Shown: positions 41,030 to 44,983 of the stretch, piece by piece | How positions within the stretch are numbered: the first letter of the stretch is position 1 | How the letters are laid out: each line of letters begins with the position of its first letter | From: a plasmid | Sequence record: NZ_CP085281.1 | Strand: one strand, 5' to 3' | DNA length: 64,000 bases | Notes under the pieces: generated by a model | What the model saw: only the letters and a program-made list of their open reading frames with translations | Told to the model about the DNA's origin: nothing | Databases searched by the model: none | Translations under genes and position numbers: made by a program

Positions 41030-41800
41030 TTATGCGACGATCCTAGTCGGGCTCGACGGGGTCAACCGGTGCCGACCGTTGACGAAAATGCGGCCTCCAG
41101 CAACACCTGTGTAGTGGCTGGCCTTGGCCTCCTGCGCGCAGGATTCCATCAGCGGGCATCCCTTGCAGAGCATTTCGGCCTCAGCGCAAGCGACCCGGCA
41201 TTGGGTCTTGCTGCCGCCGGCGGCAAAGACGTGCTCGACCCGGTCCTCCCAGGCGGTGATCACCCCGATGTTGGTTCGGCAGTTCGGCACGTTCGCTGCC
41301 GCGGGGGCAGCGCCGGGCCGGCGGGCACCGGGCCCGCGACGGTTGGCCAGCGCCCGCGCCAGTCGAGCGGCCGCGCCGGCGTGCACGGGGCCCGCGGGAA
41401 CAGCACCAGCGGGCCGCGGCCGCGGCGGTGCTGCCGTCACAGCGGCGGCGGTAGCAGCTGCGCTGGCCTGTGCGCGCGCAAGCTGTTGCGCCCGTTCGGA
41501 TGTGGCTTTCTGGATCAGTGCGGTGGCGTCACTGCCGTTGGGGCCGGTTCCCGGCATCGGCACATCACCTAGGACCGCCGGGTCGATGTCCAGTGCCGCC
41601 ATGAACGGGGCCAGCATGCTCGGCGGGGCAGCCAGGACCGCGCTGGCGGTGTCGACCAGGCCGAGACCGTTGAGGTGGTCGACGATCTTGCGCCGCGCGA
41701 GGCGGCTCTGTCGACGGTTGCCGTTGGCGCGGGCGGCGGCCGGATAGCTGGTGCAGCTGGCGCAGCGACGGCGGGTTCCGTCCTTGAGGGATCGGCACAT
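41030..41800 (-). CDS. Two-domain protein: an N-terminal Cys-containing domain shared with the ART protein at 42821..44983, plus a C-terminal WhiB-like Fe-S domain.
   Basis: ATG at 41800 (MCRSLKDGTRRRCASCTSYPAAARANGNRRQSRLARRKIVDHL…) aligns with the N-terminus of the 720-aa protein (MCRSTQHGGRRCPGCGSYGAAAKANGNRRLGRLARKKVVDHL…). C-terminal …CKGCPLMESCAQEAKASHYTGVAGGRIF matches the WhiB C-x2-C-x5-C + G[VI]WGG signature. Confidence 0.6.
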   Translation of the reverse strand: MCRSLKDGTRRRCASCTSYPAAARANGNRRQSRLARRKIVDHLNGLGLVDTASAVLAAPPSMLAPFMAALDIDPAVLGDVPMPGTGPNGSDATALIQKATSERAQQLARAQASAAATAAAVTAAPPRPRPAGAVPAGPVHAGAAARLARALANRRGPGARRPGAAPAAANVPNCRTNIGVITAWEDRVEHVFAAGGSKTQCRVACAEAEMLCKGCPLMESCAQEAKASHYTGVAGGRIFVNGRHRLTPSSPTRIVA

Positions 41801-42117
41801 CAGAAGGCCCCCGCAATCGGTTGGGCCGGAGTACGACGAAACATGGTTCCCCTTCCGGTGAAGGTGTCTTTGGCACGGCCAGACTAACCCAAATCCGGAA
41901 AGTTCACCACCCTTGGTAAGTTTTAAGTTGCCTCCCGACACCCTGCGTGTGCCCGTTCGCCCATGTCATAGCCGCTACCTAGGCGGCATTCGTAGTTTCT
42001 CCACGGACACCGGCGCCATGGGGGAAAGTGCAGTCTCGACCGGCGCGCCGCACCGACCGCCAACCCCGCGGCGGGCAGGATTCCAGCTACCACTCAACAC
42101 AGCGGAGATCAGAGCCG

Positions 42118-42501
42118 ATGAACGACGAACCGCACCGCAGCGACGAGGACGCCCCACCCACCGGTGCGCCCCACGACGACTGCACCGGCTTGCTCGAACA
42201 GCTGGCGGCGGCCTCACTGGTGGCCGAAGCCGAAGACCTCACCCGCGGCGTGCGCCACTTGTCGATCGCCACCGGCGACCCCGAAACCGAGGACGAGCTG
42301 GCCCGCATCAACACCCTCACCACCGCAGCGTGGACCTCACGGCCAGGGGCAGCCACGACGTCGATCCGCGGAGGCGGCGACTATCTGACCGTGCGCGTCG
42401 AGGGACCTGATGCAGAAAGGTTCGTCGACGACCTCGCCGAGCTTGCCCGGCAACTCAACCCCGGGTTCTGGCGCATCACACGCTCCGCGCACCCCTTCTG
42501 A
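42118..42501 (+). CDS. Hypothetical acidic protein (127 aa).
   Basis: ATG at 42118 (MNDEPHRSDEDAPPTG…). The only + strand gene in this block. Confidence 0.45.
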   Translation: MNDEPHRSDEDAPPTGAPHDDCTGLLEQLAAASLVAEAEDLTRGVRHLSIATGDPETEDELARINTLTTAAWTSRPGAATTSIRGGGDYLTVRVEGPDAERFVDDLAELARQLNPGFWRITRSAHPF

Positions 42502-42539
42502 GCAGCCCAGACGACACGTCCACCCGACACTCGGTCTGA

Positions 42540-42722
42540 TTAGTCGTCCACCGCGCGGACCGGCTCCCCGTTGATCAGGTCGTAGGCAGTGGAGCGGATT
42601 GTCACGATGTCGAGTTCGTCGAGGTCGGCCAGCCGGCCGATGGAATCGGCGATCGCCTCCGGGGTCATGCCCTCATCCAGTCGCTGTTGGATCTCGTCGA
42701 TCTGCGCTCTGGTCAACGCCAT
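42540..42722 (-). CDS. Small hypothetical protein (60 aa).
   Basis: MALTRAQIDEIQQRLDEGMTPEAIADSIGRLADL…. Weak call. Confidence 0.35.
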   Translation of the reverse strand: MALTRAQIDEIQQRLDEGMTPEAIADSIGRLADLDELDIVTIRSTAYDLINGEPVRAVDD

Positions 42723-42820
42723 GTCGGCCCCTTTCCCTGCCCACCCGCTGCCGGCTGACACCGGCACGGGGACATGCTATTGCCCCAGTTCAGCATGGTC
42801 GTCCGGCGGCACTATCCTCA

Positions 42821-44983
42821 TCAGCCGGCCTTCTTCCAGCCGCCGGCACCGGTGTCCTCGGCTTCAGCCACCAAATCTTCGCCGACCAGGTAGACCGTCG
42901 GCTTACCGGCGATGCCGTTGTGCTCGACGTGTACGCACCGCAGGTGCGAACCCATCGGCAGAATCACCTCGTCCTCACCGGAGAAGTTGGAGATGCTCTT
43001 GACCGGCAACCCCTCCCGGGTGCGCACGACCATGTAGTACGGCGGATGCCCGGCGAACGCCGAGGCCGTTGACTGCTTGGTGGTCGTGCTGGTCACCTTC
43101 CCTACTTCCATGCGAGCACCGACACTGAACACCGCGTCGATGTACTCCGCCGGCGTTCCCTTCCACCCGCTGGGCACCCTCGTCCCGCGCACCACCGTCA
43201 TCGGAGACATGTTCGGGTTGTTCTCGCGGAACTTGTCGAACGCCGACTCGATCCCGGAGACCACCGTCTTGATCGACCCCGAGGGCTTGGCACCGTCACG
43301 CCCGCAGATCGCCGCGTTGATCGCGGTGTAACTGCCGCCGGTGTACGTCGTCAACGCCGAACGCTCCTTGCTGTCGAGCGCCTTCTGCACGAACGCCGCA
43401 TTCGCCGCCGTCAGCTCACTGATGCTCGACGTCTGGACCCCCGGGCCGCTGGTGTTGAAGCCCCACGCCTTGAGGTTGCCCGCCCGCTGGCCGATCACCG
43501 CATAGTCCTCGGCGGTCTCTTTGCCCCACGCGCGGATGCCGCTGCGCCACAACGCTTTGTGCTTGTCCGCACCGAGGCTGTCGGGTGGGATTTTGTGGTC
43601 GAAGTGCGGGATGACCCCGCCACCACGGGTCAATGTGCCCAGCGCGCGCCGATGTGCCGCCGCGTAGGCCTCCTGGGCGGCCGCGGCTCCCTTGCCCGCC
43701 GCCAGGGCCTCGGCGCGGGCGGCCTCGCCGGCGGCCACGGCCGCCTTCTCCCGCACAAGCTTCTTGTGCCGCTTGGTCGCGTCGTAGATGTCGGCGCGCA
43801 CCGGTCCTGCGCCCACGGCCTCGACGAGCTTCTCGCGGGCCTCCCCCATCTTGTCGTCGATGAACTTCTGGTGCTGCTCGGCGTTCCAATGATGTTCTGC
43901 GGCTTGGCCTGCCAGCTGCAACAGCACCTGAGACTTGATGTGGTGGGCCTGAGCCTCGGTGTCGGTGGCGCCCTCGGCAAGTGGGGGCAGCTCGGCCATC
44001 ATGGGCATGCGGTTGGCCTTGTTGAGCGCCGCGGACTTCCCGCCGGCAGCGGCCACGCCGTGGTAAACCCCGTCGCGCTTCTGCAGGATGAGGAAGTCGC
44101 CGGATCCGCGGCGGTGGATCGCCGTCCCACCGTCGAGCAGACGCCCCTCGACTTCGACGGCCCCCGATCCGGTCTCCATCAGGAACTTGCCGGGGGTGTA
44201 GACGGAGGTGTCGCGCACCGCCCCGGCCAACAGCGCCGGCTGCGGCCCCGCATCCAGCGCCCCGGCAGCCTCGGCCGCCACCGACCGGTTCAACGACCGC
44301 GCCAACGCCTCGACGTCCTCGGCACTGAGGTTGGCGCAGTACGCGTCGCGCTCCTCTCCGGGCAGCGTGGTGGCCACCCCGTACTTCGCCGCGACCACGT
44401 CATCGGCTGCCATCGGGACGGCGAGCTTGGCCTGCTCATAGGCCGCCTTGGCCGCGTCGATCTCCTCACCGGCTTGCGCAAGCTGCGTGAGCTGCTCGCC
44501 CGTCAGCGAGTCCCCTTCGGCCGAGCCGAACTCCTTGACCAGCTTGCGGCGCCGCGCCTGGGCCCGCTGCACGGCCTTACGGCCGTCGTCGACGGCCTTC
44601 TCCGCCGCGGCGAGCGCCTCCTGCGCCTGCTCCAGAGCGTGCTCCTCCGGGGAGATCTGCGGGCCGGCCAGTGCGGCCTGCTCGGCCTTGGCCGCGGCGA
44701 TCAGCAGCCCCGCCGAGGGAGGGTTGGAGTGGGTACTGGGCATGGGGGTGTCACCGAGCACCGACTCCTCGATGCCCATCGCCTTCATGAATTCCGGTAG
44801 GACGCTCGGGGGTGCGGCCAGGATCGCCTTCGCGGTGGCGACCAGGCCTTGCTCGGTGAGGTGATCGACCACCTTCTTGCGGGCCAGCCGGCCCAGCCGC
44901 CGATTGCCGTTCGCCTTGGCCGCGGCGCCATAGCTTCCGCAGCCGGGGCAACGCCGGCCACCATGTTGGGTCGATCGGCACAC
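42821..44983 (-). CDS. Large protein with a C-terminal ADP-ribosyltransferase (ART, C3/VIP2 or phage Mu-F-like) domain. Its N-terminal domain is paralogous to that of 41030..41800.
   Basis: GTG start. C-terminal motifs TTYTGGSYTAINAAICGR (aromatic-R), STASAF/STTT (STS-like), and SNFSGEDEVILPMGSH (E-x-E followed by ILP). Confidence 0.75.
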   Translation of the reverse strand: MCRSTQHGGRRCPGCGSYGAAAKANGNRRLGRLARKKVVDHLTEQGLVATAKAILAAPPSVLPEFMKAMGIEESVLGDTPMPSTHSNPPSAGLLIAAAKAEQAALAGPQISPEEHALEQAQEALAAAEKAVDDGRKAVQRAQARRRKLVKEFGSAEGDSLTGEQLTQLAQAGEEIDAAKAAYEQAKLAVPMAADDVVAAKYGVATTLPGEERDAYCANLSAEDVEALARSLNRSVAAEAAGALDAGPQPALLAGAVRDTSVYTPGKFLMETGSGAVEVEGRLLDGGTAIHRRGSGDFLILQKRDGVYHGVAAAGGKSAALNKANRMPMMAELPPLAEGATDTEAQAHHIKSQVLLQLAGQAAEHHWNAEQHQKFIDDKMGEAREKLVEAVGAGPVRADIYDATKRHKKLVREKAAVAAGEAARAEALAAGKGAAAAQEAYAAAHRRALGTLTRGGGVIPHFDHKIPPDSLGADKHKALWRSGIRAWGKETAEDYAVIGQRAGNLKAWGFNTSGPGVQTSSISELTAANAAFVQKALDSKERSALTTYTGGSYTAINAAICGRDGAKPSGSIKTVVSGIESAFDKFRENNPNMSPMTVVRGTRVPSGWKGTPAEYIDAVFSVGARMEVGKVTSTTTKQSTASAFAGHPPYYMVVRTREGLPVKSISNFSGEDEVILPMGSHLRCVHVEHNGIAGKPTVYLVGEDLVAEAEDTGAGGWKKAG

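Follow-up and report, generated by a model that had tools for sequence, protein, structure and literature searches.

The 64,000-nt stretch of plasmid sequence record NZ_CP085281.1 analysed here (the window) carries, on its minus strand, two genes whose products of 720 and 256 residues begin with the same N-terminal domain (NTD) and end in different heads: an ADP-ribosyltransferase (ART) domain in the longer protein and a WhiB-like Fe-S domain in the shorter. A first-pass annotation, made from the sequence alone, had placed an ART-domain protein and a WhiB-domain protein directly upstream of eccA. Both open reading frames (ORFs) were recovered where that annotation had put them (Table 1), and eccA starts 52 nt past the stop codon of the WhiB-like gene. 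eccA is itself the first gene of the plasmid ESX locus, which runs eccA-eccB-eccC-PE-PPE-esx-espG-...-eccD-mycP-eccE down to approximately position 22921. The start of the WhiB-like protein was set at the ATG of its MCRS sequence, where every homologue in a 25-homologue alignment begins. The region shares 85% DNA identity with the Mycobacterium avium plasmid p1-JPH1. The 720-residue protein is 100% identical to the M. avium subsp. hominissuis plasmid protein P0013, which is annotated as an ADP-ribosyltransferase, and the 256-residue protein is 100% identical to the hypothetical protein P0095 from a plasmid of the same subspecies.

Homology between the two proteins over their first ~90 residues, as had been proposed, is confirmed. 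BLASTP comparison of the two proteins returned 60 identities in 102 positions (59%) with an E-value of 2e-32; since this value was obtained under composition-based statistics, the similarity cannot be put down to low complexity, the objection raised along with the proposal. In the ART protein the NTD comprises a cysteine-containing knuckle, an Arg-rich helix (KANGNRRLGRLARKK), and a helical bundle (GL..TA.A..AAPPS.L.EFM...GI). Models of both NTDs show a hairpin together with one long and three short helices (residues 16-44, 48-56, 59-69, and 73-76 in the ART protein), and their predicted local distance difference test (pLDDT) values are ~87-90 over residues 30-80. The NTD has no match in Pfam, NCBIfam or the PDB and no structural neighbour by fold search, and Pfam searches with 25 NTDs gave only weak and inconsistent matches to HTH_22, LisH and zinc-ribbon families. 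A profile built from 25 copies and searched against 1.84 billion representative proteins retrieved 80 clusters at E ≤ 1e-3, 43 of them at E ≤ 1e-10. The resulting signature is M-C-x(4-9)-G-G-R-R-C, an Arg-rich helix (..N.RR..R.AR[KR]K), and a bundle (G[LM]..TA......PS.L..F). C2 and C12 are nearly invariant and C15 is often present; among the 57 proteins with a recognisable Cys motif, the motif lies at residue 1 in 51, and the second Cys of the CxxC pair is kept in 28. In some WhiB-like members the helical half is repeated in tandem, two to three times, and four aligned WhiB-like members (P0130, P0131, P0133, and P0137) have lost the Cys motif and kept the rest. A third copy of the NTD was not found within the window. 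On this pattern of sequence conservation, we conclude that the NTD is a true conserved domain that has so far escaped annotation.

The ART-like C-terminal domain suggested at first pass is borne out by profile matches, fold matches and invariant catalytic residues. The domain clears the Pfam cut-offs for PF03496 (40.6 vs 23.4 bits, E 2.2e-10, aa 528-687) and PF01129 (24.0 vs 22.3 bits), and matches the PHROG family "Alt-like RNA polymerase ADP-ribosyltransferase" (E 4.6e-6). A sequence search of the PDB with the full protein gave only a marginal C3 match (E 0.34), and a fold search was therefore needed. The AF2 model of the 720-residue protein (pLDDT 85.2) returned 66 Foldseek matches at E ≤ 1e-3. 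Matches in the PDB include ExoS, C3bot, Plx2a, Tre1 (6drh), and 8za7, a Listeria pair of an ART and an ADP-ribosylglycohydrolase (ARH), with a Foldseek prob of 1.00 and target-based template modelling (TM) scores of 0.62-0.71, as well as C2-I, CDTa, and the Tre1 entry 6dre. In an alignment of 28 homologues from Mycobacterium, Mycolicibacterium, Rhodococcus, Prescottella, Nocardia, Aldersonia, Gordonia, Dietzia, and Tomitella, residues R599 (in VVRGT), S632 (in KVTSTT; the STS motif is S-T-T here), and E670-D-E672 are invariant, as are the NAD-binding helix motif YTGxxYxxINAA (Y-x-G-x-x-Y-x-x-I-N) and K629/T631. The catalytic residues align with the C3lim motifs. The E-x-E predicted at first pass is thus upheld, while the Arg that had been proposed as catalytic, in INAAICGR, belongs to the NAD-binding helix motif, and R599 is the more likely candidate. 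Judged from its sequence and model, the 720-residue protein has as its head an intact mono-ADP-ribosyltransferase of C3/ExoS/Alt type with an R-S-E/ExE active site. By analogy, the ExE loop suggests arginine as the acceptor.

The window ART shares with C3/ExoS/VIP2/Alt-type R-S-E enzymes the fold, the NAD-binding helix motif, the strand-1 Arg, the S-T-T/S motif, and the ExE ADP-ribosylating turn-turn (ARTT) loop, and with T4 Alt the property of being carried by a mobile element. It differs from these enzymes in having only 17-22% sequence identity to them, in lacking a signal peptide, MuF or binary-toxin domain, and in its ~520 preceding residues, which have no counterpart there. In the model, these residues form the N-terminal module, long helical hairpins (H112-152 and H162-204), a five-stranded beta domain (aa ~263-313), and a highly conserved segment (aa ~440-510) that precedes the ART domain. 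The whole 650-780-aa architecture is kept in the 28 aligned homologues. The aa ~440-510 segment (window ~43454-43666, minus strand), which reads LGTxTRGGGVIPHFDHKIPP...RSGIRAxGKETxxDYxVI...WGF, is the most conserved part of the protein. It holds many invariant residues, has no counterpart among known domains, and may serve in substrate recognition or form a second functional site. On mycolicibacterial plasmid-like contigs a second ART paralogue, 41% identical to the first, lies ~35 kb from it (L045 9923-11650; L039-L043). The L045-type paralogue begins MCLASSDLGGPRRC, keeping the Cys/GG-RRC start without the Arg-rich helix and helical bundle. The Gordonia and Dietzia ARTs show this same short form of the N-terminus (MCIAEDQPGGPKRC).

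The 256-residue protein (model pLDDT 70.4) opens with the NTD (aa 1-92) and closes with a WhiB-like domain (aa ~170-245); an Ala/Pro/Arg-rich linker (aa ~124-167), modelled with low confidence, lies between them. The proposed WhiB-like Fe-S domain matches only weakly in Pfam and draws its support from comparisons of profile and fold. C174, C212, C215, and C221 are invariant, with WhiB spacing, in the 25 homologues, as are the YTG[VI]AGGRIF turn and tail. Fold comparison of the model ranked WhiB7, WhiB1, and WhiB3 best and places the domain in the WhiB-like (Wbl) fold; three PHROG WhiB-like families match the protein (E 6e-4), and some of its homologues carry the UniRef label "4Fe-4S Wbl-type domain-containing protein". 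The PF02467 (Whib) match, however, falls below the Pfam gathering score (16.8 vs 23.6 bits, E 0.01). The best three PDB profile matches are WhiB4 (E 0.023), WhiB7, and WhiB3; the WhiB4 and PHROG matches, although sub-threshold, count in favour of the assignment. We accept the WhiB-like fold and the predicted cluster site, and on sequence and model the second head is a divergent four-cysteine WhiB-like domain. It resembles Wbl factors in its C-Xn-C-X2-C-X5-C cysteines, Gly-rich turn and following basic tail, and WhiB7 in the joining of a WhiB head to a second, basic module. It departs from Wbl factors in its sub-gathering Pfam score, in having GVAGG rather than GVWGG, in its ~170-residue N-terminal extension, and in being plasmid-borne. 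In the G[V/I]WGG turn, Trp is AP4, one of the four aromatic-patch (AP) residues that hold sigma-A region 4 (PMC13013590). In the WhiB-like domain described here AP4 is replaced by Ala and AP1 is not evident; W184 and F192 are candidate stand-ins for AP2-3.

The NTD is joined to further heads elsewhere. Its C-terminal partners are ART domains in many clusters (620-1031 aa), WhiB-like, kinase-like and M78 peptidase domains, and unknown domains. PI3_PI4_kinase/HipA-like heads, with DRHxxN and IDHG motifs, occur on the NTD in 11 clusters, another form carries an ImmA/IrrE Peptidase_M78 head, and the NTD also heads a 1667-aa protein without a recognisable C-terminal domain. A PDB sequence search with a kinase-like NTD protein gave no match. 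On Micrococcales plasmids, the kinase-like form has methyltransferase/helicase, DprA, and HNH genes as its neighbours; the peptidase form lies on a 130-kb contig, where its neighbours encode AAA_10 and HerA-like ATPases as well as ParA and a methyltransferase. The NTD-ART combination is present on 40 PLSDB plasmids: 26 from Rhodococcus, 12 of the pVAPN type from Prescottella equi, one from Mycobacterium, and one weak match from Microbacterium. In terms of sequence, therefore, the NTD is a reusable N-terminal domain of proteins on actinobacterial plasmids and conjugative-element-like contigs. The kinase-like, ImmA/IrrE-peptidase and unknown heads strengthen the earlier suggestion that a shared targeting or DNA-binding module has been fused to different heads, as far as the sharing goes; the function of the module is something we infer. 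Two tandem NTD-ART genes were seen on a 31% G+C contig (L010 7998-11881). The nearest relatives of their ART domains are in the Rhodococcus/Prescottella plasmid family, which argues that the pairing of NTD and ART is of old origin and extends beyond Actinobacteria. On another contig (L011) the gene for the 1667-aa NTD protein (10001-15004) lies 2.6 kb downstream of an eccA-like gene (5379-7361), a second, independent proximity of NTD and EccA.

RefSeq annotation often starts NTD genes too late and so cuts off the module. The p1-JPH1 gene at 21785-23851 is annotated at 688 aa, downstream of its true MCRS start; the annotated start of pNSL1 12145-14148 is 144 nt late; and a Microbacterium plasmid coding sequence (L005 9028-9924) begins after the NTD. 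The ART of pVAPN1571 is annotated with an unconserved upstream extension. Because late annotated starts remove the module, the NTD may have been overlooked until now. NCBI records already give the ART its name, and UniRef labels the WhiB-like protein as Wbl; neither head is of a novel type. What we did not find described is the shared NTD and its pairing with at least four head types; in the literature searched on pRAW, pMAH135, pVAPN, and ESX-P we found no mention of this ART, the WhiB-like protein or the NTD.

Conservation of the neighbourhood was surveyed in 36 genome loci holding an ART relative, which were found with the ART alignment and examined over 10-kb flanks. The order ART-small ORF-(antisense ORF)-NTD-WhiB-like-eccA-eccB-eccC is kept in all eight mycobacterial loci with enough flank and also in divergent contigs, but not in the non-mycobacterial loci. 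Within 10 kb in the 18 non-mycobacterial loci, no Ecc genes were found other than a weak 24%-identity EccC-type match in L033. In 13 of these 18 an ARH gene stands beside the ART, in the order ART-small ORF-ARH and without a WhiB-like gene. An ARH gene follows the ART in the Rhodococcus, Prescottella, and Dietzia orthologues; in pVAPN1571 and pNSL1 the order is cutinase-(HNH)-ART-small ORF-ARH, with a MobF relaxase next in pVAPN. The window has no homologues of the ARH, MobF relaxase, DUF2637 or cutinase genes of the Rhodococcus neighbourhood, the one exception in this comparison being a relative at 692-2209, 33% identical to the 604-aa pVAPN protein. p1-JPH1 does encode an ARH, 61% identical to that of pVAPN, 63 kb from its ART. 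A general link between the ART and type VII secretion, entertained at first pass, is not sustained: the Rhodococcus, Prescottella, and Nocardia relatives usually have an ARH neighbour and lack ESX genes in their flanks. Nor was the WxG or YxxxD/E secretion signal that had been put forward as a check found in a helix-turn-helix context. The ART contains only a WKG that lies inside its catalytic domain and Y698xxxE702, which is part of the last beta strand, and the WhiB-like protein has neither motif. The ESX linkage of the ART is real but confined to mycobacteria, and we regard the eccA-adjacent position as a feature of the mycobacterial lineage, not as evidence that the ART is a type VII substrate.

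Two further ORFs lie between the ART and WhiB-like genes. The first, of 60 aa, adjoins the ART in nearly all full-length ART loci among the 36 and is 45-47% identical to the small ORF after the ART in pVAPN and pNSL1. It has only weak helix-turn-helix-type matches (HTH_7, HTH_38, and DUF433; E 0.002-0.1), and its sequence makes a small helix-turn-helix protein possible. The second, divergent ORF shows 80% amino acid identity to an annotated p1-JPH1 hypothetical protein and is kept in eight mycobacterial loci at 66-80%. It matched no family in Pfam, NCBIfam, PHROG or PADLOC, and could be a regulator or an immunity factor. NCBIfam gave no match for any of the four locus proteins, Rfam none on 40900-45400, and a promoter/terminator scan nothing exceeding shuffled expectation. 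PADLOC defence models had no match among the window proteins, and the same was true of toxin and immunity families.

The upstream regions of the ART and WhiB-like genes have in common an exact 14-nt motif, TGCCAAAGACACCT, which suggests that the two genes are co-regulated. The window holds four matches to the motif at ≤2 mismatches vs 0.27 expected (Table 1), and the motif is kept ahead of both genes in p1-JPH1 and M. rhodesiae JS60, with variants on the ART side in p1-JPH1 and in locus L007. From its sequence and placement, the motif may be a shared operator or an element of the 5' untranslated region. The WhiB-like gene is also preceded by an upstream ORF (uORF) of 14 codons, the TGA of which overlaps the WhiB-like ATG (TGATG). 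This overlap suggests translational coupling, and the uORF as read from the sequence suggests translational coupling or leader control. The same uORF is present in p1-JPH1; that of M. rhodesiae JS60 has the same length and position and a different peptide, and the divergent locus L008 has no counterpart.

Table 1. Positions of the genes, domains and upstream elements described in the text, in window coordinates
Feature	Position	Strand	Remarks
NTD-ART protein gene, 720 aa	42821-44983	-	ORF; GTG start, GAAGGAGG 6 nt upstream
NTD of ART protein, aa 1-90	44714-44983	-	M-C-x8-R-R-C-P-G-C-G knuckle, Arg-rich helix, helical bundle
ART catalytic domain, aa ~525-712	42848-43411	-	Pfam, Foldseek, PHROG
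NTD-WhiB-like protein gene, 256 aa from ATG	41030-41800	-	mechanical ORF extends to 41941
WhiB-like Fe-S domain	41066-41293	-	C174-x37-C212-x2-C215-x5-C221, then HYTGVAGGRIF
60-aa ORF directly downstream of ART gene	42543-42722	-	candidate small helix-turn-helix protein
Divergent ORF, ~118 aa, between 60-aa ORF and WhiB-like gene	42145-42501	+	mechanical ORF 42028-42501
eccA	39121-40977	-	Pfam T7SS_EccA1_N (E 1.3e-47) and AAA; synteny with annotated p1-JPH1
14-nt motif TGCCAAAGACACCT just 5' of Shine-Dalgarno of ART gene	44998-45011	-	exact twin of WhiB-like-side copy
14-nt motif TGCCAAAGACACCT 5' of uORF and WhiB-like gene	41862-41875	-	exact in window, p1-JPH1, and M. rhodesiae JS60
TGCCAAAGACACCT-type copy	17711-17724	+	8 nt ahead of ATG at 17732
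TGCCAAAGACACCT-type copy	19909-19922	-	first codons (MPKT) of ParA gene
uORF, 14 codons (MFRRTPAQPIAGAF)	41800-41844	-	own Shine-Dalgarno; read from sequence

The explanation we consider best, though we hold it with less than even confidence, is that a single NTD adaptor brings two different heads to a common cellular site. Most likely the NTD would recruit enzymatic and regulatory heads to nucleic acid or the transcription apparatus through its Arg-rich helix. This site is favoured because of the Arg-rich helix itself, because WhiB, ImmA/IrrE, and HipA-like domains typically join or work with DNA-binding modules, and because a WhiB head on a basic module mirrors WhiB7, in which a WhiB domain is combined with a DNA-binding AT-hook. 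The repeats of the NTD helical half were also counted towards a binding module, as modules that bind nucleic acid or protein are often repeated. The WhiB-like protein would act as a plasmid-encoded transcription factor on the ESX genes that lie next to it in the same orientation. The position of its gene directly upstream of an ESX locus recalls that of whiB6, which adjoins ESX-1 and whose product regulates ESX-1. At the same cellular site, the ART would transfer ADP-ribose to an arginine of a host protein, a modification that the plasmid ARH would reverse, and its action would favour plasmid gene expression, establishment or maintenance.

Several observations weigh against this explanation. 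No ARH is encoded in the window. The helical bundle of the NTD is acidic and hydrophobic, unlike a typical DNA-recognition helix, and a zinc-knuckle interpretation of the Cys motif is weakened because the third Cys, that of CxxC, is missing in approximately half of the wider NTD family. Binding of sigma-A region 4 by the WhiB-like protein is uncertain on its sequence, as the turn Trp is an invariant Ala and AP1 is unclear. Finally, a signal or tag would account for the strict N-terminal position of the NTD no less well than a DNA-binding domain would.

The last point leads to an alternative that we think possible, though doubtful, in which the NTD is a delivery tag. Tagged heads would be exported by a type IV secretion system (T4SS)-like apparatus and/or ESX-P into the recipient during conjugation, to act there as early establishment or anti-defence effectors in the manner of T4 Alt. 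The NTD nearly always stands at the extreme N-terminus with a Met-Cys start, as a signal would, although known T4SS signals are mostly C-terminal or internal. Its heads are of polymorphic effector type, yet a transcription factor is less intuitive on an export tag than on a DNA-binding module. On plasmids and conjugative-element-like contigs, the neighbours of NTD genes include VirB4-type (AAA_10) and FtsK/HerA-like ATPases, methyltransferase/helicase, and DprA. The ART and WhiB-like genes abut the ESX locus in mycobacteria, and the unrelated 1667-aa NTD protein is encoded close to an eccA-like gene, but the orthologues in Rhodococcus, Prescottella, and Nocardia are without ESX genes in their 10-kb flanks, and the sole YxxxE of the ART lies in its last strand rather than in the helix-turn-helix context of a WxG or YxxxD/E signal. 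Conjugation of pRAW-type plasmids requires both the T4SS-like and the ESX-P system (PMC4173767). The match of the ART to the Alt-like PHROG also agrees with delivery; T4 Alt enters the cell together with the phage DNA, and its target for ADP-ribosylation is RNA polymerase (PMC5512222).

It is unlikely, in our estimation, that the ART is a toxin and the ARH its immunity protein, the two forming an addiction or toxin-immunity pair that would serve in competition between bacteria or in maintaining the plasmid. The comparison is prompted by the fold matches to Tre1 and the Listeria ART-ARH effector-immunity pair, and by the order ART-small ORF-ARH in the 13 non-mycobacterial loci. As in Serratia Tre1-Tri1 and the Listeria pair, an ART fold is combined with an ARH that follows it in orthologues, and an orthologous ARH is present on p1-JPH1. 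Unlike in those pairs, the ARH is unlinked in mycobacterial plasmids (63 kb off in p1-JPH1 and absent from the window), the conserved 60-aa ORF separates ART and ARH, and the protein has no T6SS or recognised type VII secretion system (T7SS) trafficking domain. In mycobacteria ESX-P would secrete the ART, and the NTD together with the long helical region would serve as an LXG-like trafficking domain. LXG toxins have a long N-terminal helical region and small helper proteins, a layout that the two helical hairpins and the small downstream ORF resemble, but neither a T7SS motif nor a PADLOC, toxin or immunity family match was found. In addition, the same NTD is carried by a WhiB-like regulator, which is not a toxin, and the full-length architecture is strongly conserved, without the C-terminal variability typical of polymorphic toxins.

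We give little credence to a reading of the NTD as a sensing or assembly domain, in which its conserved cysteines (C2, C12, often C15) would make up a redox switch or a site for a metal or Fe-S cluster, or in which the long helix would mediate dimerisation. In the latter form the helix would pair NTD proteins with themselves or with each other, leaving the ART and WhiB-like protein co-regulated or in a complex, and the helix at residues 16-44 of the models would suit this role. The near-invariance of C2 and C12, the CPxCG sequence, a classical metal-knuckle signature, and the weak zinc-ribbon hints from Pfam are consistent with a sensing role, but only two cysteines are general to the family, and the four WhiB-like members that lost the Cys motif kept the rest of the module. 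In characterised relatives, the WhiB-like partner head is itself an Fe-S domain that responds to redox state and NO (PMC6954389).

Least probable of all is the full claim that Met-Cys...G-G-R-R-C is a new N-terminal tag for plasmid effectors of Gram-positive bacteria: removal of Met would expose a free N-terminal cysteine, this cysteine and the RRC motif would attach the protein, through metal or covalent chemistry, to the transferred DNA or the transfer/ESX apparatus, and ART, WhiB-like, PI3/4-kinase-like, ImmA/IrrE peptidase, and large unknown heads would be carried into the recipient during conjugation. If true, these would be the first identified protein cargo of mycobacterial ESX-P/T4SS conjugation.

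Two assignments to known classes were rejected. Membership of the polyvalent proteins does not agree with the presence of one effector head per protein and an active site of R-S-E, not H-Y-D, type. The NTD proteins share with polyvalent proteins and polymorphic effectors the modular combination of host-modifying heads of mobile elements (ART, metallopeptidase, kinase-like), and the logic of modifying host proteins in favour of establishment (Iyer, Burroughs, Anand, de Souza, and Aravind 2017, PMC5512222). They differ in having one head each rather than several, in the R-S-E ART as opposed to the H-Y-D (Tox-ART-HYD2) clade of polyvalent-protein ARTs (PMC5512222), and in their common element, a short N-terminal module that was not among the matches in a keyword search of that paper. 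A MuF-fused phage ART toxin was also dismissed: Phage_Mu_F (PF04233), one of the families suggested at first pass, had no match at E ≤ 0.1, and no relative of the NTD or of the NTD-ART combination was found in 50,697 phage records.

Mycobacterial ESX-P plasmids need their type VII system for conjugation, and to our knowledge no plasmid-specific regulator or protein effector of ESX-P conjugation is known. The locus supplies two candidates: a putative WhiB-type factor at the head of the ESX genes, placed like WhiB6, and an intact ART, predicted to be of the arginine type, with a matching plasmid glycohydrolase. The unannotated NTD family ties together ART, WhiB-like, kinase-like, and peptidase heads in several actinobacterial orders and at least one low-GC lineage, and knowledge of the binding partner of the NTD would show where plasmid effectors act.

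Other parts of the window hold additional genes of mobile elements. A 1602-aa protein encoded at 2827-7635 (plus strand) combines a S-adenosylmethionine (SAM)-methyltransferase with a SNF2-type helicase, as is typical of the anti-restriction/polyvalent proteins of conjugative elements. The gene at 11134-13488 (minus strand) encodes a 784-aa DnaB-type replicative helicase that probably contains an intein, because its C-terminal domain is matched in two stretches. Four tyrosine-recombinase (Phage_integrase) genes of 990, 417, 763, and 408 aa occupy 50914-58056 (minus strand), where the G+C content is lower (0.61-0.64), and this cluster is probably an inserted mobile element. At 60483-61877 (minus strand) a GNAT acetyltransferase is fused to a PRK/zeta-toxin-like P-loop kinase domain.

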